In this document: in pieces, positions 10,601 through 47,609 of the stretch | Position numbering within the stretch: the stretch's first letter is position 1 | Layout: each line of letters opens with the position of its first letter | Assembly: GCF_947568905.1 (NCBI RefSeq) | Contig: NC_079165.1 | Span: 21,452,001-21,516,000, forward strand | DNA from: Ostrea edulis | Lineage: Eukaryota | Length of the DNA stretch: 64,000 nt | Reading direction: 5' to 3' | Made by a program: the position numbers and the translations under genes | Notes under the pieces: generated by a model | The model's input: the letters and a program-made list of their open reading frames with translations, nothing else | Told to the model about the DNA's origin: nothing | Databases searched by the model: none

Positions 10601-10685
10601 GATATGTTCTTTCATTCAATTGTGGTTACTGTGTAAACCTGCCCAAGTGCTCTTTACAATTTTTTTTATGCACAATAACTTCAAA

Positions 10686-11810
10686 ATCTGGATCTGCATT
10701 GCAAACTTTACAGTCTGGATCTAATTACAATCTTTACAGTCTGGATCTGATCACAAACTTTACAGTCTGGATCTGATCACATAATTAACAGTCTGGATCT
10801 GATTACAAACTTTACAGTCTGGATCTAATTACAATCTTTACTGTCTGGATCTGATCACAATCTTTACAGTCTGGATCTGATCACAACTTTACTGTCTGGA
10901 TCTGATCACATAATTTACAGTCTGGATCTGAATATAAACTTTACTGTCTGGATCTGATTACAAACTCTACAGTCTGGATCTGATTACATACTTTACAGTC
11001 TGGATCTGATCACAACTTTACTGTCTGGATCTGATCACATACTTTAAAGTCTGGATCTGAATACAAACTTTACAGTCTGGATCTGATCACAAACTTTACA
11101 ACCTGGATCTGATCACAAACTTTACAGTCTGGATCTGATTACAAACTTTACAGTCTGGATCTGATCACAAACTTTACAGTCTGGATCTGATTACAAACTT
11201 TACTGTCTGGATCTGCATCACAAACTTTACAACCTGGATTTGCATTACAAACTTTACAACCTGGATTTGCATTACAAACTTTACAGTCTGGATTTGATTA
11301 CAAACTCTACAGTCTGGATCTGATTACAAACTTTACAGTTTGGATCTGTATCACAAACTTTAGTCTCAATATGATCACAGACATTACAATCTAAATTTGA
11401 TCAGAAACTTTACATCTGGGTTTGATCAGAAACTTTACATCTGGGTTTGATCAGAAACTTTACAAACTGGATCTGATCATAGACTTTACAATCTGGATCT
11501 GATCAGAGATTTCACAATTTGAGTCTGCAGATCACGAGCCTTTCAATCTTGGTCTGATTACATTTCCTTACTATCTGGGTCTGATCATGCAGAGACTTAA
11601 ATCTGGGTCTGATCACAAACTTTACAATCTCTGTCTGATCAGAATCTTTACAATCTGGATATGAGCATACTATTATAGACTTTACAATCTGGATTACAAT
11701 TTGGATATGATCATAGACTTCACAATCTGAGTATGATCACAAACCTTACAATTTTGGTCTGATCAGACTTTACAACATGGGCTTGATCATAGACCTTACA
11801 ACCTGAATTT
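10686..11810. repeat. 26-bp minisatellite (TTTACAGTCTGGATCTGATCACAAAC), about 40 copies decaying rightwards
   Basis: Period 26 (ctggatctga at 10741 and 10767). Confidence 0.93.
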
Positions 11811-18938: not shown

Positions 18939-19103
18939 ACCGGCGATCGAACCCGGCCTACCACTACAGAACTAACACCTCAACTTTATGATAAAACGGG
19001 ATGGTTTCATCTTCTCCATCGACAACTTCCCATATTCATGTAGCAATATTCCATTATCACCTGCATATGTATAATATGAAATTCATTTTCAATTTAGACT
19101 GTA

Positions 19104-19459
19104 AGTAGTATAACGCGTCCCGATAGGGAGGTCAACTGAGTGCACTTTTTATGCAAATGAGGTCAAGTAAGGGCGTTTTTGATTGGTCAAGCGGTGTTGG
19201 GGTCAACGGAGTGCACTAGGACGGGGTCAACCCCAGCAGGGGTTGTAGAGCGGGTGAATAGACTGGCCTATGGCCGCTGGTCTATGATGCGGTACTTTCG
19301 CTTTGAGTTCCTGGAATGAGTTCCTGCTATTTTTCTGAAAATCGGTATAAAATCCAGTGAAATCCTGTGTATTAAATCTAAAAGAATAACAGTGTATTAA
19401 ATCTAAAAGAATAACACAAGGTTTTAAGTTGACATGTTTATTAAAGAACAATGGTACAA
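19104..19459 (+). repeat. Left terminal inverted repeat (356 bp)
   Basis: Reverse complement of 38844-39199; identical by eye except one mismatch at 19453/38850 near the inner end; contains 2x25-bp tandem repeat at 19367-19416. Confidence 0.96.
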
Positions 19460-19532: not shown

Positions 19533-20450
19533 TTACTTTCTGCTGAGTTTCTTCTTCTTTTTTGGCCGTTCTTCAGTAGGTGCGGGTGGATTCCACATCT
19601 CTAACGGTGTGTATTCTCTCTTCACAGGGGGTTTTGAGCCAGGTACGGGTCCAATCATCGCATCTATCTCCGCTTGTTCTTCTGGACACTCACTAATCCA
19701 GTGTCCTATTTTTCCGCATTTGAAGCAAGGATCCTTTTGTTTGGTTTTCTTGCTGGTCTGTTGAGAATCTGCCGACCACGATTTCTTACTGGTCTGCGGA
19801 TAATCTGTTTTCTGTGGGCAATCCGGCGACCAATGTCCTGTTTCTCCACACGTGTAGCACGGGTTAGCAGTGTAATCTGGAGTGTATTCCTTCCTAGGTT
19901 TTTTAGAAGTCAGGTCTTCCAGCTTCTTCAGTAGGATTGTGGTATGATTTCCAATCTCATTACTCAGCACATTAATGCGGTTAACGATCCCGTCTAGTGT
20001 CGTGGTAATGATGGCGAAATCGGTCCTGCTCATGGGGGAATCTTCTCCGCCGAAGGGGGGTTTATCGTATAAGCCCATCTCCAGTCCCGTAGCGTCCTGT
20101 GAATCGGGAAAATAGAAGCCTAATCCCGGGTCTGTCGGATTCTGGCTAGGGAGGTAATCCGAGGTCTGGGCCATCTTCACTTGTCGAGCAACGTGGTCTG
20201 AAGGCGTGAGATTGAAGCTCGTGGTCTGGTTCGAGGTCTGGGCCATCTTCTTCTCTTCTCTTCTTCTTTGAGCAACGTAGTCTGGAGACGTGAGCAAGAA
20301 GTTCGAGGTCTTCCCCAGTTCAGTCTTCTGATCGTCACTCTTAGCTTTCTTCAGTTCAATGTAGTCTTTCTGTGGCCCCATCTCCTTCTGTACCAGCTGA
20401 TCTATTTTCTTCTGAGCTTTGTCCACAAATTCTAGTTGTTTCTGAGCCAT
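19533..20450 (-). CDS. Maverick accessory protein with two CCHC zinc knuckles (Gag nucleocapsid-like)
   Basis: CYTCGETGHWSPDC and CFKCGKIGHWISEC; TATAAAA at 20503-20509; AATAAA within TIR (19437-19442); C-terminal KKKKK. Confidence 0.85.
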   Translation of the reverse strand: MAQKQLEFVDKAQKKIDQLVQKEMGPQKDYIELKKAKSDDQKTELGKTSNFLLTSPDYVAQRRREEKKMAQTSNQTTSFNLTPSDHVARQVKMAQTSDYLPSQNPTDPGLGFYFPDSQDATGLEMGLYDKPPFGGEDSPMSRTDFAIITTTLDGIVNRINVLSNEIGNHTTILLKKLEDLTSKKPRKEYTPDYTANPCYTCGETGHWSPDCPQKTDYPQTSKKSWSADSQQTSKKTKQKDPCFKCGKIGHWISECPEEQAEIDAMIGPVPGSKPPVKREYTPLEMWNPPAPTEERPKKKKKLSRK

Positions 20451-20770: not shown

Positions 20771-21277
20771 TTAAAAATGGCCGGCTTCATACGCAGGTTC
20801 TTCTATATACACGTGTAAGTCATGATCTTCGGATATAATGTGTTGTACTAATTGTCGAGCTCTTCTCCCGGGGAAACGTATCTCTTCGACGGTTTCCCAC
20901 ATCCAGTGTGCATCCCAAAACAATACCCATACACTTCTCCGGTAACGTGGTTTCTCCAGTCGAATAAATCCCGATACTTTTTGAGTGCCGTTCAATAACG
21001 TGTAAAACTGGTAAATCATGTACTGTATGAGGGGGGAATTTTTCAGGTACATGTCACTTAAACGCAGGTAAATATCCTCCACTGTTTCATGTGACCGCAA
21101 TACATAGTCAAAACACCAATTTTTAGATCGGCCCCAGCGTAATCGATGGCGACATCTCTGTACTAAATTGGCCCAGATCTCCATCTCGTCTACATAATCT
21201 TCTACTATGGTTAAATTCTCCACTGGTTGTATTCCCTGGCCGCGGCGTCTCGCTCTTAAAATTCTCCGTGTATCCAT
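20771..21277 (-). CDS. Maverick accessory protein resembling an inactivated CRESS-virus Rep HUH endonuclease domain
   Basis: RSKNWCFDY (motif I-like), NGTQKVSGFIRLEKPR..DAHW (motif II region lacking His); AATAAA right after stop (20764-20769). Confidence 0.6.
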   Translation of the reverse strand: MDTRRILRARRRGQGIQPVENLTIVEDYVDEMEIWANLVQRCRHRLRWGRSKNWCFDYVLRSHETVEDIYLRLSDMYLKNSPLIQYMIYQFYTLLNGTQKVSGFIRLEKPRYRRSVWVLFWDAHWMWETVEEIRFPGRRARQLVQHIISEDHDLHVYIEEPAYEAGHF

Positions 21278-21312: not shown

Positions 21313-21392
21313 CAGCTGACGTACAGGTGCTTGATCACGTGGTGCAGGTGTTTGATCACGTGATGCATAACCTTTACCTATAAATACAGGTG
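21313..21392. promoter_or_regulatory. Divergent promoter with E-box cluster and TATA
   Basis: CAGCTG, 2x CACGTG, 3x CAGGTG; 21-bp tandem repeat 21324-21365; TATAAATA 21379-21386. Confidence 0.7.
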
Positions 21393-21416
21393 TTTTCTGA
21401 ACGTTCGTTATTTACT

Positions 21417-21749
21417 ATGGGGGGCAGTGCTACTACGAGAATAAATGGATATAGTTATGTACTACAATGTATGAACGTGGCCTTACATAATCCTCACATT
21501 CAAAATGCTCGTCAATTTGTACAACAGATGTCACCGGAGGTCAGAAATGTACATAGTTTTCAACGGATTGCTGATTCATTAGCGGAGAATACCAATACGG
21601 GACGTTTACTCATGATTTATTTGTATGCTGAGGAATTGAAACAGAATCTTCCAGACCAGATGAGTGACATTGATCGGATCTTACGCGATTGTCTACAAAA
21701 AGGATTCGTGGAACTGATTCGTATGAAAGGAATGGCTGCCCTGTTATAA
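21417..21749 (+). CDS. Mini Bcl-2-family (BAK-like) protein, 110 aa
   Basis: FQRIADSLAENTNTGRLLMIY resembles BAK FTKIASSLFESGINWGRVVAL (BH1); C-terminus resembles BH2 region; ATG 21417 follows TATA. Confidence 0.7.
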   Translation: MGGSATTRINGYSYVLQCMNVALHNPHIQNARQFVQQMSPEVRNVHSFQRIADSLAENTNTGRLLMIYLYAEELKQNLPDQMSDIDRILRDCLQKGFVELIRMKGMAALL

Positions 21750-21786
21750 AACAAGAACGTTTTAGAATTTTTTCATTTTGATCATC

Positions 21787-22140
21787 ATGGCTGAATTGAC
21801 CAACAACGTTCTTACCGCTGTATTACAGCATTTCGAGGACTACAAAGAATCGGTGAACAACGCTCGTAGCGCTGCATTACGGTGTATCAAGGACTGGAAA
21901 GAAAAACAGCCGTTGAGATATAAATTCGCCATGAAGTTGTTGATCTTTTGGGAATTTCCTATGACCTTATATGAATATTCCAGCGTTTGCAAGCATATAG
22001 CCGACAACCTGAACAGAGAGTCTGGATTGATCATGATTTATAACATGGACCAAGAATTTAGACGACGGGAACCTGAGAAGACTGGGGCGATTGTAGCGAT
22101 TACCGATCACTGGCTGGAAAAGGTGTATAAAAAAACCTAA
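21787..22140 (+). CDS. Helical paralogue 2 of tandem array (putative derived Bcl-2-like fold)
   Basis: EFPMTLYEY..HIADNL..GLIMIY..QEFRRREPE..AITDHWLEKVY shared with neighbours. Confidence 0.75.
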   Translation: MAELTNNVLTAVLQHFEDYKESVNNARSAALRCIKDWKEKQPLRYKFAMKLLIFWEFPMTLYEYSSVCKHIADNLNRESGLIMIYNMDQEFRRREPEKTGAIVAITDHWLEKVYKKT

Positions 22141-22168
22141 CCGTTTTCTTTTCCTTTATTCCTGGAGG

Positions 22169-22516
22169 ATGGCCAGCAGTGACAACATCGCAGAAAAAGC
22201 TCATAACCATGCATTAGAATGGGTGGAGAAAATGCAAGACGATACGGTGTTTCAAGCTGTTAAAAATTATCTGATAGCGGGGGTGTTTCCAATGACTCTG
22301 GACGAATATACAGATCTACGGAACCATGTGTACATCAATCTCTATAACGATGCGGGGTTGATGTTAATTTATGTCGCGGGGGAGGAATTCAAGAAACGCA
22401 TGCCTGAAAAAACCGCCGAGATTGAAAGTATCACCAAGGACTGGCTTCGAGAAGTATACATAAAGTGTGAAGAACTTAATTCATTTCATTTATTCCCGGA
22501 GGATGGCCAGCAGTGA
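22169..22516 (+). CDS. Helical paralogue 3 of tandem array
   Basis: VFPMTLDEY..GLMLIY..EEFKKRMPEK..SITKDWLREVY. Confidence 0.75.
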   Translation: MASSDNIAEKAHNHALEWVEKMQDDTVFQAVKNYLIAGVFPMTLDEYTDLRNHVYINLYNDAGLMLIYVAGEEFKKRMPEKTAEIESITKDWLREVYIKCEELNSFHLFPEDGQQ

Positions 22517-22808
22517 CCACATCACAGAGAAAGCGATAGTTTATGTATTGGATTATCTCACAGACATTCATTCTGGGCAGTTTGAATTTGTGTTACACTA
22601 TATGCGAGAAGAATTATTTCCCATCAGCTTAAAGGACTATCCATGTCTCTGTCAGTATTTGATCGAGAACCGGATCACCCCGCAAGCCTTAGTACTGATT
22701 CATTTAATGGGCCAGGAATTGAAACGAATTCGACCCACAGACAGAGCAGAAATCGAGAAAATCAGACTACGATGTCTTCGAGAGATGTACGTCAAGTTAA
22801 ACGTGTGA
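22503..22808 (+). CDS. Helical paralogue 4 of tandem array
   Basis: MASSDHITEKA start duplicates MASSDNIAEKA of paralogue 3 at DNA level; LFPISLKDY..ALVLIH..QELKRIRP..CLREMY. Confidence 0.75.
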   Translation: MASSDHITEKAIVYVLDYLTDIHSGQFEFVLHYMREELFPISLKDYPCLCQYLIENRITPQALVLIHLMGQELKRIRPTDRAEIEKIRLRCLREMYVKLNV

Positions 22809-22990
22809 CTTTTAATCTGGATCAAAATGAAGTGCATCTGTTACCCGAAGAAGACCGGACAAGTATCTGGATGACTGTAGCTGCTGATCGATATCGATTT
22901 CAACGCAGGATTCGAGAAATGGAAAAAATGTTGGACCCTATTTTAAAAAGACATGTGAATTGGTGTTGTGTGTGGGAGTTATGTATTTGA
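22772..22990 (+). CDS. PP1-binding eIF2alpha-phosphatase adaptor (GADD34 C-terminus / ASFV DP71L / HSV ICP34.5-like), 72 aa
   Basis: RVxF motif KRVTF followed by R..IW...AADRYRFQRRI; AATAAA at 23004-23009. Confidence 0.88.
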   Translation: MSSRDVRQVKRVTFNLDQNEVHLLPEEDRTSIWMTVAADRYRFQRRIREMEKMLDPILKRHVNWCCVWELCI

Positions 22991-23545
22991 AATATGTGAC
23001 ATGAATAAAATTGTTTACACGAAAGCTGTGTTTGGTTGAGTCTCTCAGAGAAGGGTTTATTTGTTGAGGAATCCAGAAAATCCTAAAGGTAGAGTGAAAA
23101 TCGAATCAATTAAGGTGTTTTCTATCGAATAGACCTTATGAGATGTTTTTAGGGATGTACATGGTCGAGAAATAAATTTTTAAAGAGGGGTGAAGAAACA
23201 TTGAACCTCGACTCGACCTCTTTAACCTCTGTTTCTTTGAAAACTATGCGACGTAGCAAAATAAAAATAAGTTTAACGCATTCGCCGTCTCAGAATCTAT
23301 CAGATTAAATCTACCTTGCACAGATATCGAATGTCTAGAAAAAGACAATGAGAAAAAACTCTCTACTCGAAAGCACAAATCCGCCATTTTGACGGCCACC
23401 ATCTTGGCTTCGTCTCCGAAGCGAGGGATGTTTTCGAGGAGGTCCGCGCTTTCCCGATATATACCGGCGCACTCGCCAGTTCGCTTCACTGGTGATCCAG
23501 CACAGTTATAGAAGATTTTTGAAGGATTTTAAAGAAGAAAGAAGA

Positions 23546-24337
23546 ATGGCTACAAGAAGAGACCCGCTCTACAATTTTCAGACCTTGCCTGGATTCCGGT
23601 ACCGGCTGGTAGTGGTGGCTGAGGAACGGGTAGGGGAGAATTGGGTCGTGCGTTCTGAGAACGACCTGAGCACCTTCTCCCCTTTCGACCAGAGTGGGGT
23701 CCGTGAGATCATCTGCCGGGTGCGGGCCGAGTATGAAGGGAGGGCACCCCGCCGCCGCACCGCTCGAATCTCCACGGGTACGAGACCGCGCCGACGGGCC
23801 CCACAGCCACCCTCACCACCACCACCTTACTCCCCGGCGACGCCTACAACACCACCACCAGCGATCCCATCGGCACCAGTGGAATACAGCCCGGTGCCGA
23901 TGAGCGACTCACCAGCGTCACCGGTGGAGTATTCACCGCGGTCACCGTCCCCCGCACCACCTCCCAGTCCAGCCCAGAGTCCGTCACTGCTGGTGGCAGA
24001 CACAGCATCACCACCGAGACCAGCAGCCCCTGCAAGACCCCCACCACCTACCATCCGGTTTGCAGGGAGGACTCCACCACCACCGAGACCAACCCACGCA
24101 CCGGTGGCAACTCATCCCCCGAGGAACCACCCTATGACTGTCCCTGGCTGGGCAGATAGGGCGGTTCCCATCTGGTTTAAGTGTCCTGTCTGCTGGCAAG
24201 ACAGGGTACACTCTGGAATTACGTGCAGGGGATGTGGGCAGCGCCCAGCTTGCTGCTCGTGCGTGGAAGAGTTACAGGAGCGGCGACACACCCGGGGACG
24301 GTGCCCGTTATGCCGGTTTACCGGAAGCAGGGAATGA
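23546..24337 (+). CDS. Pro-rich protein with C-terminal C4C4 RING finger (putative viral E3 ligase)
   Basis: CPVC-x10-CRGC-x5-CCSC-x13-CPLC; PPPY and YSP repeats; ATATATA at about 23457; AATAAA at 24469. Confidence 0.75.
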   Translation: MATRRDPLYNFQTLPGFRYRLVVVAEERVGENWVVRSENDLSTFSPFDQSGVREIICRVRAEYEGRAPRRRTARISTGTRPRRRAPQPPSPPPPYSPATPTTPPPAIPSAPVEYSPVPMSDSPASPVEYSPRSPSPAPPPSPAQSPSLLVADTASPPRPAAPARPPPPTIRFAGRTPPPPRPTHAPVATHPPRNHPMTVPGWADRAVPIWFKCPVCWQDRVHSGITCRGCGQRPACCSCVEELQERRHTRGRCPLCRFTGSRE

Positions 24338-24596
24338 AAGTCGGTCCTTAGGACCAAACGGCCCTTTTCAGGGCCACCAACTTTTTTGAAAAGACACTTT
24401 TTATGGCAAAAATCAAGAAACACACAAGTTTGTTTTAAAAAAGTTTTATTAACACAAGTAATAGCTAGAATAAAGCTATAATAAAGTTACATTTTCTTGA
24501 CAATGTAAACATGTTTATGATACTGATAAGCAAAGTCACAAATCCATTGTCTATAATGAGCCCAATTGCCTCCGGCTAATCCATGAGGTTTCACCG

Positions 24597-25067
24597 TTAA
24601 ACAGTTACATTGTTGTACAATAGCATCCACCCAAGGTAGAGATAATACATCTCCTCGTAGATCCGTCTCCGCCATGGTGGTTGACAGGTCTCACAGGTAC
24701 ACGTTGACCAGGGTTCTTGACTGTAAGGACAATGTTGAAACAGCCGGGGATCAAACTTTCTCTGAGTCCAGCGCTCTCTAAACTCCTGACAGATCTCACA
24801 GGTACAGTCCTTATGTGCTATTTCTTCTTCAGGGGTGATGGTACAATGCTGCGGACACTTACACTCTAACCAGGGTTCTCTAGTGTGACCACAACATTTA
24901 TAGACAAAGGGATAATACGTCAGCTCTGCCAATCTCTCTATCCACTTCTGTTTGGCCAGGATGTTTTCTTTTTTATAATGAAAACAGCCACAAGTGCTCC
25001 AAGGTCCTCGGCAATACCCACACACTAGTACATCATTCTCATCATCCGCGTACCGTTCAAACGACAT
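24597..25067 (-). CDS. Cys/Trp-rich repeat protein of unknown function
   Basis: Three C-x5-PW-x2-C-x-C units; TATATA about 35 bp upstream of ATG 25067. Confidence 0.65.
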   Translation of the reverse strand: MSFERYADDENDVLVCGYCRGPWSTCGCFHYKKENILAKQKWIERLAELTYYPFVYKCCGHTREPWLECKCPQHCTITPEEEIAHKDCTCEICQEFRERWTQRKFDPRLFQHCPYSQEPWSTCTCETCQPPWRRRIYEEMYYLYLGWMLLYNNVTV

Positions 25068-25115: not shown

Positions 25116-25190
25116 TGAGTCATCAACATGACGTCAGCCATCTGAGGTAGGGGATGTTTTCGAGGACGTCCGCGCTCTCGCCTTTTTAAA
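25116..25190. promoter_or_regulatory. Divergent promoter: AP-1 site (25116-25122), CRE (25129-25136), 26-bp shared motif (25151-25176)
   Basis: TGAGTCA, TGACGTCA and GGGATGTTTTCGAGGACGTCCGCGCT read directly. Confidence 0.65.
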
Positions 25191-25241
25191 CCGAGCGCAA
25201 CGTCAAAATCGGGCATTCCGATTTTTTAAGGAACCAGAACC

Positions 25242-25541
25242 ATGAGTCGCAGAGTAGGACCAGACCCTACAGTGAATGATTATTGTATCAAATGGGAGGA
25301 GGATTGGGAGCGAGAGATTACCCCGCCGGCCTCACGGGAGGCTCTTCCCCCACCACCCATGAGCCAGGATCTGCCCCCGTCAGAAGAAAACTGGGACGCA
25401 GAGATGGAAGTGGTGCAGCGGCCTCCGGGGAGATTGTTTTTTAAACACGGGTGGTTGCCTGTTTTTGTGTTTGACCACGAGCAACCCCCGGAGGAGCAGA
25501 AAAAGAAGAGAAGAAAGAAGAAGAAGAAGAACAGACAGTGA
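25242..25541 (+). CDS. Small acidic/basic protein of unknown function
   Basis: 99-aa ORF downstream of shared promoter motif; EEDWERE/EENWDAE repeats; basic C-terminus. Confidence 0.55.
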   Translation: MSRRVGPDPTVNDYCIKWEEDWEREITPPASREALPPPPMSQDLPPSEENWDAEMEVVQRPPGRLFFKHGWLPVFVFDHEQPPEEQKKKRRKKKKKNRQ

Positions 25542-28610: not shown

Positions 28611-29612
28611 TCAATACACTTTGCGGAAATGAAGTTTGACTAGGGAGCGCCCATTTAAAAACCCCATAGGACGCCCTAAAGAATTCATGATGTGTACCTC
28701 AATGGTATCGAAATATTTCTTACTCAGTTTCAAATATTCGGCTCGAATCGGTTCCCAACGGGCTTGTTGTCGATCGTCGTATTGAGCCGTACAGGGGACG
28801 ACTCTCAATAATTTCAATTTGTTGGTGCCCACCACTTGAGGATCCACAATGTCACAATACACATACATGGCTTTCAGATTGTCGTAGACATCCATGGTCG
28901 TGTTCCCCAAGTAATTCACGTTGATCTATTTCGTCATGGTTTCTTGGCCCAGGATCATTTTGTCACTATCCAGACCTAGCTTGTACGCTAAGGGCGTAGG
29001 GAAACGAATGCACATGGGGGTGGATCTCAGTGCTTTCCCATTAAACTGATACTCGACACGATCGTACTCGGGGTGATACACTAAGATCTGGTTGTTCCCC
29101 TCGTCGTTAGGATTCCCTAACTCGGTCCATACTTTCCACAGGGTTCTCCTTAAGGCTGCGTTGATTTCATTGATTAACGCCAAAGGTTGTGTATAAGCTC
29201 CGGGTCGAAAGTGAATGCGAATGATATCGAAGGGAAATAAACTATCCCCTCCCGCAAAGAGATGGGACCATGGCGTCAGATCCCAGGGGACCACCACCTC
29301 ACACCTGGCCATCGTGACTTTGCCCATATTCTCTGTCTTAAATCTTTCCCATTTATAAGTGTTGGGATCTTGGACATGTTGCGTATACGGATCTGGAATG
29401 AGAACGTCCACATAAGCCTCGCTATCCGATACGTTTTGTAAGTTAGCCGAGTACATCATTTCGGTCAATCCGACTTCCCATGCTCCATCCGTTAAGTCCA
29501 TGGTGTGTGGCAATAACGTTTTAAATTGAGCCGTCGTATTCGTCGGAAACGATTCCATCGACCCATCACTCAACAGAGTCATGTAAAACCCTTCTCCTCC
29601 TCCTCCAGCCAT
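28611..29612 (-). pseudogene. Minor capsid protein (penton) interrupted by one in-frame TAG at 28926-28928
   Basis: N-term FYMTLLSDGSME.FPTNT..F..WEVGL and C-term YVYCDIVDPQVVG..LLRVV..TIEV..LHFR are in the same frame, joined ACG AAA TAG ATC AAC. Confidence 0.9.
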
Positions 29613-34223: not shown

Positions 34224-34751
34224 TTAACAAATAAAAATACGTACAGCTTGCTCAACACTATGTCTACAAATAGGACATTGTTTCAGTCCCGTAGCACATA
34301 TAGCACAAGTACATAAATGACCACAAGGTAAAAAAGCAATTCTCAAGTCTCGTTCTAAACAAATGTGACATTTCTGGGTACACATTGGATTCCCTGCCGC
34401 GTCTAAGGGTAAGCCTTCCCAATCGCAACCACTGTCTTTAGCGCGGGCATAGGCATTGAAGGCTTGTCGTACCCATTGTTTACCCTTATTACACTTCAGG
34501 TAAGGACAGTGAGGATACCAATAAGCATGTTGTATCCAAGGATTGTCGACAGCTCCCCAATGGTGAAGTCCAAAGTTGCAATAAAAACAGCACGTGTTAT
34601 CCCCGTACCCTTTGTAAAAGTATCCCGCTTCTGCAATGGTAGGTAATAGGTTCTGCAAGTGTTCGGGAGCATTTTCAAACGACGTTACTCGATCTGACAG
34701 TAGAGCATAACGTGGTGTACCCGGGTTATGTAGTGATTCGTAGTCCGTCAT
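34224..34751 (-). CDS. iap: Inhibitor of apoptosis (single BIR + RING)
   Basis: RVTSF..AEAGYFY..CCFYC..W..DNPWIQHAYWYPHCPYL; CHIC..LPCGHLCTCAICA..CPICR. Confidence 0.93.
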   Translation of the reverse strand: MTDYESLHNPGTPRYALLSDRVTSFENAPEHLQNLLPTIAEAGYFYKGYGDNTCCFYCNFGLHHWGAVDNPWIQHAYWYPHCPYLKCNKGKQWVRQAFNAYARAKDSGCDWEGLPLDAAGNPMCTQKCHICLERDLRIAFLPCGHLCTCAICATGLKQCPICRHSVEQAVRIFIC

Positions 34752-38843: not shown

Positions 38844-39199
38844 TTGTACTATTGTTCTTTAATAAACATGTCAACTTAAAACCTTGTGTTATTCTTTTAG
38901 ATTTAATACACTGTTATTCTTTTAGATTTAATACACAGGATTTCACTGGATTTTATACCGATTTTCAGAAAAATAGCAGGAACTCATTCCAGGAACTCAA
39001 AGCGAAAGTACCGCATCATAGACCAGCGGCCATAGGCCAGTCTATTCACCCGCTCTACAACCCCTGCTGGGGTTGACCCCGTCCTAGTGCACTCCGTTGA
39101 CCCCAACACCGCTTGACCAATCAAAAACGCCCTTACTTGACCTCATTTGCATAAAAAGTGCACTCAGTTGACCTCCCTATCGGGACGCGTTATACTACT
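38844..39199 (-). repeat. Right terminal inverted repeat (356 bp)
   Basis: Reverse complement of left TIR; followed by TSD ACTGTA. Confidence 0.96.
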
Positions 39200-39939
39200 A
39201 CTGTACATCTTTAACAAAAAACATTTTGTCTCTCTGGATAATTCATGTGTACCTGTTTCATTGAACAAATTATGTGAGGGCAACCTCATTTTAGAAATGC
39301 ATTTTTTATATAATTTTAGTATTAAATTTTCCAAATACAAGTTGTACAGAGTGTACTATATGTAAAACTTATACGGTACCAATTTTGATGCACCAGATGC
39401 GCATTTCGACAAATAATGTCTCTTCAGTGATGCTCAACCGAAATGTTTGAAATCCGAAATAACTATGAAGTTTTAGAGCTAAATATAGCCAAAAACAGCG
39501 TGCCAAAAAAGTGGAGCCAAATTCGTCCAAGGATAAGAGCTATGCATGAGGGAGATAATCCTTAATTTTGAAATGAATTTCTAAATTGTATGACAGCAAT
39601 TATATATACATCCGTATTTTCAAGCTAGTAACGAAGTACTATGCTACTGGGCTGTAGAGACCCTCGGGGACTAACAGTCCACCAGCAGAGGCCTCATAAA
39701 CAAATATTGTCTGCCAAGTGTTTGTAATGTAAATGTAACGTTCCTATATATTCACTTTGCATTTTGGATGACACCGCAAAAAAAAAAAAACAACAACAAC
39801 AAACAAACAAAAAAACCGAGGCCCCGTGTCACAGCAGGTGTGGCACGATAAAGATTCCTTGATCCTGCTCAAAGGCCGTAAACACCGAGCATAAACCTAA
39901 ATTTTGCAGCCCTTCAATGGCTATGGTAGTGGGTACATA

Positions 39940-42360: not shown

Positions 42361-43504
42361 GAGGAAGGAACAGTAATCTTCTTGTTCGTGTCGTTGGTCA
42401 CTTTTTACTGCACATGCGTGAAAGTGAGGCACAGAAAAAGTTTGGATCCCAAATGAATTTATCTTATTTTCTAGATGTTTTGGAGCATGTTTGGGTATTA
42501 ACTAGTTTGTTGTGCATACTTTGAGATTTTAAATGAATGCTGAGACAGAAACTAATGAAATATCACCGAAAAAGAGAAAACGTATAAAATCTAAAGGTGA
42601 GCAGGCAAAATCTGAGAAGACGCAACCTAACACGGGAAACCCTTTGTGTAATTCAAATGATAATCAGATTATACGGAGGAGGTGCGGATCATATGGAGCG
42701 CATGGATGTTTTACACACTGTTAATCCAAACAGAGAGAAATAGGATATCCAGGAGAATACTGTTAGGAATCTGAGACTCGTATCTTGGAACTTTTACGGG
42801 GGTTTTGAGAGTATATGATTTTTTAAACTAAATCAAAATGTATTTCAGTTGGAGGATCTATTGCTTTAATAAGGAATTCATTATCTAAATATGTAACTGA
42901 ATTTAAAAGAAGATGAATTCCATTTCCTTTGTACTCAAGTTTAATGAAAAGATTTATTAAGCCATACTATTGGGGGAAAAACCTTCTGTGTTTAAAGTAG
43001 TTCAGTTGTTTACTGTTAATAACTTGAAAGACATGTGTAAACTTGGAAAGTGTATGTATACACCTAGCATTGAAAGTCCGAGAAGAAAATGAGTGATTGT
43101 ATTCACCGTCATGTGTATGTTGTATTGTCTGATATCAACAGTGTCATTAATGATTTAGGTAAACTGATGAGCTGTATAGCTGAAAGTTAATAAAAAACCG
43201 AATTGAAAAAATAGTGCTTTCTTTTTCTTTTTCTCTTTGTGTGTGTTTTGCATCGTTCTTACACTGACAGGACCTAGATACCGCGGACTTAATCCAAAGG
43301 TTGTACAGAGTGCTGCTGGCGTGTCTGGACTGTATTCTGCAGTGAATCAAGTCCGATTCTACCTGTGTTACATCGATTGCCTATGGACAATGCTCGTCAG
43401 ATAGGCTCTTGGACATACGAGTGCGCTTGGCAGATTTGGTACATCCGAATCGTCAGGGCTGTCTCACGTTACTATTTTCATCAATCATTGCAGCAAAGTT
43501 GACA

Positions 43505-43722
43505 GCAGCATTACATACCTTAATACTTTCCCCAGCATTCAGCAGCATTACATACCTTAATACTTTCCCCAGCATTCAGCAGCATTACATACCTTAATAC
43601 TTTCCCAGCATTCAGCAGCATTACATACCTTAATACTTCCCCAGCATTCAGCAGCATTACATACCTTAATACTTTCCCCAGCATTCAACAGCATTACATG
43701 CTTTAATACTTTCCCCAGCATT
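43505..43722. repeat. 37-bp tandem repeat (about 6 copies)
   Basis: CAGCATTACATACCTTAATACTTTCCCCAGCATTCAG. Confidence 0.9.
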
Positions 43723-44117
43723 TGAATTTGAGTGATATATGTATATGGAATCTGCTGCACACAGATTTTTTAAAATGTCTCAATTTTCTTTGGCCTTGAT
43801 TAACATTTAGAAGCTGCTGCCCAAATCACTAGATATGACAAGATATCTAACGCTGGGCTGTTCGGTATAGCATGACAAGATATCTAACACTGGGCTATTA
43901 AAAGATATAAAATGTACCAAGTACATTATTACAATATTCACAGGTACTCTGTCTCATATCTGAGGCCCAATCATATAATATATTCATTATCGACAGTTGA
44001 ACATTAGAAAACAACGCACATCCTACCGGTATTCCTGGAAGGAATCTAACAATGTCGAATATAATGCAGATGGATTCTAGATTGAACACATGGATTTATT
44101 TAATTAATCCGGAAATT

Positions 44118-45141: not shown

Positions 45142-45915
45142 ACCCAAATATGCATGACAAGTCTCAGCTTATGACTTGTGTGTAGTTGATAGTACCTGAT
45201 CTCGTTATCTATAAGTTAAAGTATAATCTATTTCTGAAAATTATCATGGTAATTTTAGATTTTCTAAATGTCATCGAGTGTGTGTATGTAGATATACTTC
45301 AATATTAAATAGATTTCAGTTTTGAAATACATGAGGATGTGAATTGCTACACTTCACGCCTGCGTACTCTATGAATTGCTTATATTTACATTCTATTTCC
45401 ATTTCTGTCTGAACAACAACCGTTAGAACATACGTACTATATTTATCAAGATTCATACACGCATTGTTCACAACTGTTGTGCATTCATGAGGAAATGGCT
45501 ATCACTAGAAAGATGTAAATATATCATAGGTATAAATATTGGACATGAAAATGTTTTGTTTTGTTTTTTTTTTTGTTTTGTTTTTTATACAGATGTTTGA
45601 TAATACATATTTTCAATGCATATTTCATAAACCATGCAGTCATTTGCTATTTCGAATCTGATATATATCAACATTGTCAGTTGTGTATCCAGGATTTGTT
45701 AAAGGGGGAATAGGCTTTTGAGACGTTATATGTTACCTTTATGGGTCATTCTAGCTATACTTTATGCTTAATGAAATAAATAAATAAAAACCAACAACTG
45801 GCATGTTAATCTTAATGCACTTGTTTGTATATATAATGTTAAGTCTTGTACATGTACGTTTGCGCTATTGTTTGACTATTTTATTATTATAAATTTTTTT
45901 TTGGTTACAAAAGGG

Positions 45916-46355
45916 GTGTGTGTGTCTAAATCCGTTACTGATTGTAATGTCATGCTGTGTGTGTCTAAATCCGTTACTGATTGTGATGTCATTCTGTGTG
46001 TGTCTAAATCCGTTACTGATTGTGATGTCATGCTGTGTGTGTCTAAATCCGTTACTGATTGTGATGTCATTCTGTGTGTGTCTAAATCCGTTACTGATTG
46101 TGATGTCATGCTGTGTGTGTCTAAATCCGTTACTGATTGTGATGTCATTCTGTGTGTGTCTAAATCCGTTACTGATTGTGGTGTCATTCTGTGTGTGTCT
46201 AAATCCGTTACTGATTGTAATGTCATGCTGTGTGTGTCTAAATCCGTTACTGATTGTAATGTCATGCTGTGTGTGTCTAAATCCGTTACTGATTGTGATG
46301 TCATTCTGTGTGTGTCTAAATCCGTTACTGATTGTGATGTCATTCTGTGTGTGTT
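45916..46355. repeat. 39-bp minisatellite (about 11 copies)
   Basis: TGTGTGTGTCTAAATCCGTTACTGATTGTGATGTCATTC; 13-aa periodic ORFs. Confidence 0.95.
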
Positions 46356-47609
46356 GATGTCATTCTGGTGATATTGTGCATTTTGTTAATGTAGATAATA
46401 TAACTCAACTACGAACGTGTTATGTATTTCACTGCAGTCATGTGAGGATCCGGGCTAGAAAAGGTCCTCAGTACCCCACCCCCGGGGATCCGGGATAGAA
46501 AAGGTCCTCAGTACCCCTTGATTGTCGTAGTAGGCAAATAAATGAGATAGTCCTTCGGATAAGACAGCAAAAACCGAGACCTCGTGTCACAGCAGGTGTA
46601 GTACGATAAAGATCCTTCCCTGCTCAAAGATCGTAAGCGCCAGGCAAAGGCCTAAGTTTTACAGGCCTTCACCGGCAGTGGTGATGTCTCCATATGAGTG
46701 AAATATTCTCGAGAGGGACGTCATGAAACAATGTACATGTATATATCAAAGTAATTCCGCTAGGTTTTTTTCTTTCAAAATTTAATACTGATTTATTTTC
46801 AGCAAATATGCAAATATCATTGGTTCAATGAATTTATATACTCATTTATTCACTAAATGCAGAAACCCCGGCGTACGATAATGTGAAAAGGTGAAGATAA
46901 CGAACGAATCTAATAACTTCTATGACGAATACAAAATTTAGAGTTGGGCAAACACGGACCTCTGGATATACCAGAGGTGTGATCATATGTCTAGGAGGAG
47001 TAAGTATCTCCTGTCGACTGGTCACACCCGCCATGAACCCTATACATGTGTCTTGATCAGGTAAACAGAGTAATCCATAATCAAAATCAGAGTTTAAATA
47101 ACACGTCGGGCAACATTTGACAGGTTGTATTGGCATACTAGATCGTTATACATAGTCGGAACCGCCCCTCCCAGTCTGTAGCACTTCTTTTACCTCCCGT
47201 AGGACACAACGCCGATATTTTCGCTTGAAGTTGTTTCTCAGCTTCTTTATGCGATTGGTCACTTTACCATTCCTTATTGCGATATTCAACTAATAACCCC
47301 CCCCCCCCATTTCAAGTGTTCGGGAGCAAAGGAAAACATGGCTTTCGAAGCGAAGATTTTGACAAGTTACAAAACGTTCAGAGAGATGCTTTACAGCTTT
47401 TTAATCAGTTTGTTTTGAAATTAATTTTATTCAAAATATAAACATACCTAACAACGTTTCTCTTTCCTCCTTCATCTGGTCCACTTTTGTGACCATCGAT
47501 GCTTCTAATTTAAGAGGTATGTGTTTGTTAGATGGGGTATGTGTTTGTTAGAGGGTATGATTTTTGATAGAGGAATAGATAACACATTTTATATACACAC
47601 TGTATTCCA

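Follow-up and report, generated by a model that had tools for sequence, protein, structure and literature searches.

The closest described relatives of the locus considered here are the adintoviruses, in which homologs of Bcl2 and of the inhibitor of apoptosis (IAP) have been reported, IAP being labelled close to the maps for Mytilus and Pinctada (Starrett et al. 2021, PMC8502044, in the portion of that report covered here). The locus itself lies in a 64,000-nt stretch of the Ostrea edulis genome (hereafter the window, to which all positions refer), where a cassette of six open reading frames (ORFs), A to F, is enclosed by a Maverick. The adintovirus accessory genes (Bcl2, IAP and Oncoid) belong to the same class of element as this Maverick, and the covered portion of the report gives them one sentence and the map labels, in which no tandem array, truncated fold or overprinting is described (PMC8502044). 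Likewise, a GADD34-like gene finds no mention in its main text or in the covered part of its supplement, outside which lies Fig. S1, which may show Bcl2 examples (PMC8502044). In other words, the occurrence of Bcl2 and IAP in adintoviruses, which an earlier note on this DNA had thought possible, is already in print, and an eIF2alpha adaptor in Mavericks was not found in print. The same note had named the cassette a candidate for an undescribed system. This holds in so far as no report of a GADD34/DP71L-type gene, of a truncated tandem Bcl-2-like array or of D/E-type overprinting in Mavericks was found in the open-access literature, and goes too far for the parts taken singly, each of which has a known viral counterpart.

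Among these counterparts are the viral Bcl-2 proteins, to which adenovirus E1B-19K belongs, and of which A179L of African swine fever virus (ASFV), vaccinia F1L, orf virus ORFV125 and myxoma M11L give the best full-length fold matches of A and D, with a BH1-BH3 contact also predicted for A. The products of A to D differ from viral Bcl-2 in their length of ~100 amino acids (aa) and five helices, in alignments that stop before BH2 and in having no membrane tail; moreover, the cassette has three to four tandem paralogs, only one of them with BH1. The poxvirus proteins A46, A52, K7 and B14 are Bcl-2-fold immunomodulators without BH3 binding, an expanded paralog family that has lost its BH motifs, and this loss resembles the one that we infer for B, C and D, although these proteins are not among the fold matches listed for A and D. 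For ORF E, the counterparts are ASFV DP71L, ICP34.5 of herpes simplex virus and PPP1R15A/B, with which it shares an RVxF motif, a W...D-R-x-RF motif and, further downstream, a pair of leucines; an unrelated N-terminal extension, such as E has, is also found in the long form of DP71L (PMC5346070, in the part covered). Unlike these proteins, E, a predicted adaptor, comes from an integrating 20-kb invertebrate element, is overprinted on a Bcl-2-like gene and carries Ser at the [Gnl] position of its eIF2alpha motif.

For animal Mavericks the choice between infectious virus and transposon was described as open, particles not having been observed (PMC8097293, in the part covered). Our overall reading of the cassette, to which we give a probability of about 0.7, is that of an accessory block which likely preserves the life of the host cell, and its protein synthesis, during replication of the element.

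The cassette and its host Maverick

Mavericks are defined by inverted repeats with (AGT)2//(ACT)2 ends and a 6-bp target duplication (PMC8097293, in the part covered). The window element has all of these features, its termini reading AGTAGT//ACTACT within a 6-bp ACTGTA duplication and its terminal inverted repeats being 356 nt long and 100% identical, such that a complete Maverick/Polinton of 20.1 kb spans 19104-39199 and encloses the cassette, as the earlier note had supposed. Pfam models identify a pPolB, an integrase with chromodomain, an ATPase and a protease, the last with an E value of 2.5e-4, 0.1 bit short of its cut-off. No Pfam model matches the capsid genes of the element, which were assigned from size, from position and, in part, from motifs that we take to be those of major and minor capsid proteins. 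The putative minor capsid gene (28611-29612) has an in-frame stop near 28926, leaving an open frame of 230 aa, and the window copy is therefore probably non-autonomous for this gene; of 81 matches in the genome, 76 have a corresponding frame of 333-335 aa. Searches of the genome (895 Mb, 52 contigs) returned at least 40 matches to the cassette DNA at 97-100% identity (all 40 scored of 311 candidates), at least 150 to ORF C (150 scored of 505 candidates) and at least 130 to the IAP gene with an E value of 1e-30 or better (150 scored), all three being lower bounds. There are, in other words, more than 100 relatives of this Maverick in the Ostrea edulis genome.

The six ORFs all lie on the + strand, and C/D and D/E overlap, which agrees with the co-oriented, overlapping arrangement described in the earlier note. 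Comparison was made across 62 loci, comprising the 20 best DNA matches (the window itself being one), 40 picked by hand over the range of divergence and two found through a PF10488 search. Intact A-B-C-D-E-F is present in 23 of these and intact A-C-D-E-F in 11, the remainder being partial or degraded, and the order A-(B)-C-D-E-F is constant across subfamilies wherever the genes occur. ORF B groups with C (on a tree that kept 35 of 44 rows) and is optional, being missing from most diverged subfamilies. A distant, degraded Maverick (L080:4062-7135 and L112:1401-5339, C3 near 94.31 Mb), with an integrase 39%, a capsid 28-40% and an ATPase 31% identical to those of the window element, has a helical paralog followed by a stop-interrupted adaptor, together with a CARD-PC4 gene, and therefore the pairing of helical gene and adaptor recurs; its broken adaptor is nearer to the host PPP1R15. 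Beyond the Ostrea edulis genome, synteny rests on database proteins without genomic context, and relatives of C were not found in viral contigs, nor those of E in metagenome contigs. The linked block is, on these data, an accessory region that is conserved in a Maverick of high copy number.

Purifying selection acts on A, D, E and F. In single-pair comparisons with a distant natural copy (NG86), dN/dS is 0.18 for A (P 2.5e-9), 0.33 for D (P 1.5e-4; partly confounded by the overlap with E), 0.31 for the core of E (P 0.008) and 0.38 for F (P 1.8e-4; synonymous sites of its RING saturated against the most distant allele). Neutral evolution across copies, the outcome against which the earlier note had set its interpretation, is thus not seen for these four genes. 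The other two weaken the case for the block as a whole: C shows no significant constraint against distant copies (dN/dS 0.67-0.76, P 0.17-0.25), and B, comparable with a paralog only (dN/dS 0.57, P 0.03), has a pooled dN/dS of ~1 among close copies, pooled values not being independent as they share the window copy.

The cassettes are also mosaic (L051-L090), near-identical alleles of C or F standing beside A that is ~48% or ~97% identical and D that is ~38% or ~97% identical, in varying combinations, a pattern pointing to recombination between subfamilies. The alleles of the IAP gene fall into identity classes of roughly 99%, 87% and 68%. Short relics on C10 (L078, L079) contain an adaptor and a helical gene in reversed order.

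Products of the cassette

Of the functional assignments, that of ORF E is the firmest. Its top PDB sequence matches are ASFV DP71L (E value 1.3e-4) and PPP1R15B/CReP, and the PF10488 cut-off is passed by 109 of 150 scored genome matches. All 56 loci that cover the motif region have RVxF; 51 of them have the W-xxx-A-x-D-R-x-RF core, and 52 have leucines aligned with L57 and L61 of DP71L, which have been found important (PMC5346070, in the part covered). The published eIF2alpha motif, Rx[Gnl]x1-2Wxxx[Arlv]x[Dn][Rg]xRFxx[Rlvk][Ivc] (PMC5346070, same part), is fitted by E at all positions but one. Two points count against the assignment, namely the serine at this one position, [Gnl], and the PF10488 match of the window copy, which falls slightly under the cut-off (E value 1.9e-5). 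On balance E is very probably a PP1-eIF2alpha adaptor of the DP71L/GADD34 type.

As to the overprinting of E on D, the E frame is free of stops over the 50 codons tested in 30 of 30 distinct D sequences, and the same frame contains one to four stops in every one of 62 distinct A, B and C sequences. Under a synonymous-codon null, the probability of so open a frame is 0.002-0.005 in three D alleles and 0.064 in that of the window. In 53 of 56 loci an in-frame AUG lies 54-56 codons 5' of the valine of RVxF, and it is at this upstream AUG that E probably starts. A short form of 72 aa from Met44 was considered as the conserved product and rejected, since this Met is found in 24 of the 56 loci only.

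A probable host PPP1R15 gene was also located (L092:1495-3162), the last exon of which seems to start at the Val of K-V-H-F and shares 34% identity with the E core. Among named proteins its nearest relatives come from Saccostrea, in keeping with an oyster-type host, and the viral adaptors may derive from this gene.

ORFs A to D are paralogs (BLAST E values 5e-19 to 2e-3), and three independent lines lead from them to one family: a weak Pfam match of A, full-length fold matches of A and D, and a BH1-type contact in a predicted complex. The Pfam Bcl-2 match of A (E value 0.0066, under the cut-off) is the sole sequence evidence. AlphaFold2 gives confident five-helix models, with pLDDT of 89 for D and 88 for A. 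When the D model is compared by VIA, Bcl-2 proteins make up 18 of the top 29 rows and all 16 of those aligning at least 95 of the 101 residues, the best being A179L (Z 7.4, root-mean-square deviation 3.3, 100 aligned) and F1L (Z 7.3); the alignments end at about alpha6, before BH2 (at 184 in Bcl-xL and 308 in Mcl-1). For the A model, 41 of the 43 rows listed by Foldseek are Bcl-2-family entries, headed by ORFV125 (probability 0.99, E value 0.23), one of the 41 titles being placed in the family on our own assumption.

Where the central helix begins, 46 of 47 A ORFs have the BH1-type motif N-x-G-R, with the Trp replaced, as do all nine A-type relatives checked; the motif is absent from B (0/25), C (0/60) and D (0/55). 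The partner chosen for complex prediction was a stretch of 35 residues from a host Bcl-2-family locus (L106), which we take to be Bak-like and the first residues of which may be intronic. ORF A with this BH3 peptide scored 0.85, against 0.01 for the best control, with contact agreement between runs of at least 91% and partner pLDDT of at least 84, and with G62 and R63 of A contacting the Gly-Asp of BH3, such that the predicted binding is of the canonical kind. The mark on this scale is reached by 51 of 78 solved pairs and by two of 108 mismatched pairs; it is uncalibrated for peptides and for host-pathogen pairs, and the score of A may reflect likeness to solved Bcl-2:BH3 complexes. With moderate confidence, then, A and D would carry a truncated five-helix Bcl-2 fold, and A likely works like a shortened viral Bcl-2, capturing host BH3 helices. 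The earlier note had set the whole array against mitochondrial apoptosis, and this may stand for A, which keeps BH1, and is overstated for B, C and D, all without N-x-G-R, which are probably Bcl-2-fold proteins that have lost BH1 and have other host targets. Since the BH2 region and a C-terminal membrane anchor are missing, A to D are best described as Bcl-2-like and not as canonical members of the family.

ORF F has a RING pattern, C-x2-C-x10-C-x2-C-x5-C-x2-C-x11/13-C-x2-C, in 47 of 51 ORFs, with Cys in place of the usual His, and gives a full-length zf-RING_2 match (E value 9e-4). A profile of F (A2) gave 21 weak PDB matches, mostly RING E3 ligases and best with TRIM32 (E value 0.008). That all its RING matches fall under the curated Pfam cut-offs speaks against the assignment; its conserved N-terminal domain has no Pfam match. 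ORF F is likely a RING E3 ligase, on domain evidence that is weak but consistent. Of the domain calls in the earlier note, accordingly graded, that of the eIF2alpha adaptor is strong, that of the Bcl-2 fold moderate and for a truncated form, and that of the RING as just given. The IAP gene that the note had counted as complementing the cassette does encode BIR and RING domains, and it lies ~10 kb away, in the same element and outside the cassette.

Proposed mechanism and alternative readings

From known virus biology, it may be expected that linear, protein-capped DNA replication and heavy capsid synthesis would trigger the eIF2alpha kinases and mitochondrial apoptosis. In such a cell A would hold the pro-apoptotic BH3 helices of the host, E would recruit PP1 such that eIF2alpha is dephosphorylated and the translation block reversed, as ASFV DP71L does, the IAP would restrain caspases, and F, as a likely RING E3 ligase, would remove some host factor. 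An antagonist, under selection, of the eIF2alpha translation shut-off, together with a predicted BH3 trap, is what large DNA viruses typically carry; the toolkit fits an infectious cycle and equally fits the survival of germline cells during bursts of copy number. With more than 100 copies, induction of the element could affect the antiviral and heat-stress responses of the host, and A and E allow host conflict to be tested with small proteins, without the element itself. If the predicted contact is true, a Bcl-2 protein of ~100 aa that still binds BH3 without BH2 would bear on the lower size limit of the fold. Tentatively, and at rather less than even odds, one may go further and regard bivalve Mavericks as active animal viruses (no particles having so far been observed in these hosts), in which a minimal five-helix Bcl-2 fold gave rise to one BH3 trap and to paralogs with new targets, the last paralog being coupled by overprinting or fusion to a captured PP1-eIF2alpha adaptor, and the module being swapped between lineages by recombination.

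The accessory-block reading has to be set against the view that the helical paralogs are generic five-helix bundles, Bcl-2-like by resemblance, and that only E, F and the IAP modulate the host. In favour of this view, no Bcl-2 sequence match was obtained by Pfam for ten allele or paralog ORFs (0/10) or for 34 database relatives found by the family profile (0/34); PDB sequence searches with the family profile and with A gave unrelated weak matches only; the ESM Atlas gave no usable match for C or A, and Foldseek none for the D model among viral models. The best VIA score of A, Z 6.3, ties with unrelated bundles, and Bcl-2 accounts for 13 of its 50 rows. Both A and D are below Z 8, where according to the tool a match may be a common helical arrangement, and the Foldseek E values of both are all above 0.2, no single fold match being significant. 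Furthermore, compared with the usual fold, two helices and a tail are lacking, with neither BH2 nor a membrane anchor in A to D (maximum 19-residue hydropathy 1.06). The fold scores being below the safe range of the tools, the Bcl-2 case therefore rests on convergence, and it is the coming together of the Pfam match of A, the full-length fold matches of A and D and the N-x-G-R motif, contacting the BH3 Gly-Asp in the predicted complex, that makes the generic-bundle view improbable. Equally doubtful is the idea that D and E form a single Bcl-2-fold/PP1-adaptor fusion, produced when the ribosome shifts by -1 on reaching the end of D, or in frame in other lineages, with the helical domain targeting the phosphatase. 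The D stop does lie inside the RVxF codons of E in every type of cassette junction, a TATA for E is lacking in all 23 upstream regions, and the database protein P0008 joins a helical domain to an adaptor in frame, P0023 likewise running from a helical domain into RVTF. A G-TTA-AAC heptamer (22796..22802, + strand), which we take to be slippery, also stands in the D frame just 5' of the D stop in 24 loci that share the D allele class of the window. It is missing from all other D alleles, however, across which no conserved -1 frameshift site was found, and P0008 is from one contig and may be a frameshifted relic. Moreover, neither an E frame open for 73-85 codons further upstream nor the AUG found at -54/-56 in 53 of 56 loci would be needed if the ribosome shifted frame at the end of D.

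The accessory block could also be transcribed as the earlier note had envisaged, with A to E as one spliced or polycistronic early unit, like E1B/E3 of adenovirus, of a lytic virus. The TATAAA at 21379 and the AATAAA at 23004 from which that proposal began are present, and the latter, the one AATAAA downstream of E, suits it, as do the absence of a TATA for E and, in several subfamilies, for C; the capsid genes intact in most copies, as judged from the minor capsid frames given above, would suit a lytic virus. The TATA is not single, however, since further TATAAA words at 21745 and 22126 and a CATAAA at 22459 lie 42-44 nt 5' of B, C and D, such that A, B, C and D each have a TATA-like word at -38 to -44 together with an initiator-like word. 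This is the geometry, TATA at -37 to -46 and TCA[TGC]T or TTATT near the ATG, of nine of the 22 element genes examined; moreover, intact vertebrate Mavericks have been reported to be intronless (PMC8097293, in the part covered). Across distinct upstream regions the initiator-like word recurs for A (19/21), B (6/6), C (25/25) and D (23/23), and the TATA-like word for A (15/21), B (5/6) and D (22/23); its absence in 16 of 25 regions for C, six of 21 for A and all 23 for E is a point against separate promoters. With a TATA/initiator-like site before each of A to D, a set of nested transcripts is more probable than a single unit: the likeliest arrangement is that A to D are expressed from separate promoters as nested, 3'-coterminal mRNAs ending at 23004, and the single unit appears unlikely. 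A further AATAAA lies at 21440, within A, and separate signals for F are a TATA-like site (23458) and AATAAA words at 24469 and 24480. All 30 bins, those between genes included, were covered by four read runs whose kind is unrecorded, and none of the 15 listed joints was GT..AG, so that they are uninformative on transcription.

Feature positions and neighbouring observations

Table 1. Positions in the window of the cassette genes, their predicted signals, the IAP gene and the ends of the Maverick.
Feature	Position	Strand	Description
Left terminal inverted repeat	19104..19459		Begins AGTAGT; target duplication ACTGTA 19098-19103
A core promoter, predicted	21379..21412	+	TATAAAT at -38; TTATT initiator-like word at -9
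ORF A	21417..21749	+	110 aa; predicted five-helix Bcl-2-like; BH1 N60-T-G-R63 at 21594-21605; no BH2 or hydrophobic tail
B core promoter, predicted	21745..21777	+	TATAAAA at -42, over A stop; TCATT at -14
ORF B	21787..22140	+	117 aa; C-group paralog, no BH1 motif; fold by homology only
C core promoter, predicted	22126..22160	+	TATAAAA at -43; TTATT at -13
ORF C	22169..22516	+	115 aa; helical paralog, no BH1 motif; fold by homology only; weakest selection signal
D core promoter, predicted	22459..22490	+	CATAAAG at -44, inside C 3' end; TCATT at -22 and -17
ORF D	22503..22808	+	101 aa; predicted Bcl-2-like, five helices spanning alpha1-alpha6; BH1 motif absent; hosts overprinted ORF E
ORF E	22643..22990	+	115 aa; very probable DP71L/GADD34-type PP1-eIF2alpha adaptor; first 55 codons overprinted on D
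ORF E motifs	22799-22813; 22856-22912	+	KRVTF; eIF2alpha-binding-type motif; also L97, L101
AATAAA	23004..23009	+	Likely common to nested A-E transcripts
ORF F	23546..24337	+	263 aa; N-terminal domain, Pro-rich linker, C-terminal eight-cysteine RING-like domain ~24182-24313
IAP	34224..34751	-	Single BIR (E value 1.7e-15) and RING (E value 9.6e-12); adjoins pPolB
Right terminal inverted repeat	38844..39199		Target duplication ACTGTA 39200-39205

Several further features of the element deserve mention. Similar short sequence, GGATGTTTTCGAGGA..GTCCGCGCT, is found 5' of F (23380-23460) and 5' of the ORF at 25242 (~25120-25220), possibly as a shared regulatory element. A conserved gene with two zinc knuckles (CCHC), under purifying selection, adjoins the left repeat at 19533-20450. 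Between this gene and the cassette, a conserved ORF divergent from A (20771-21277) has a weak Viral_Rep match (E value 0.015), and the upstream region that it has in common with A contains repeated CACGTG words (21338-21363). Downstream of F, a Cys-rich ORF (24597-25067) is confined to close subfamilies; it has paired cysteines, no LxCxE by eye and no Pfam match. Outside the element, the host DNA of the window contains tandem repeats at 1-2100, 10626-11800, 43491-43752 and 45839-46432, with periods of 48, 26, 37 and 39 nt.

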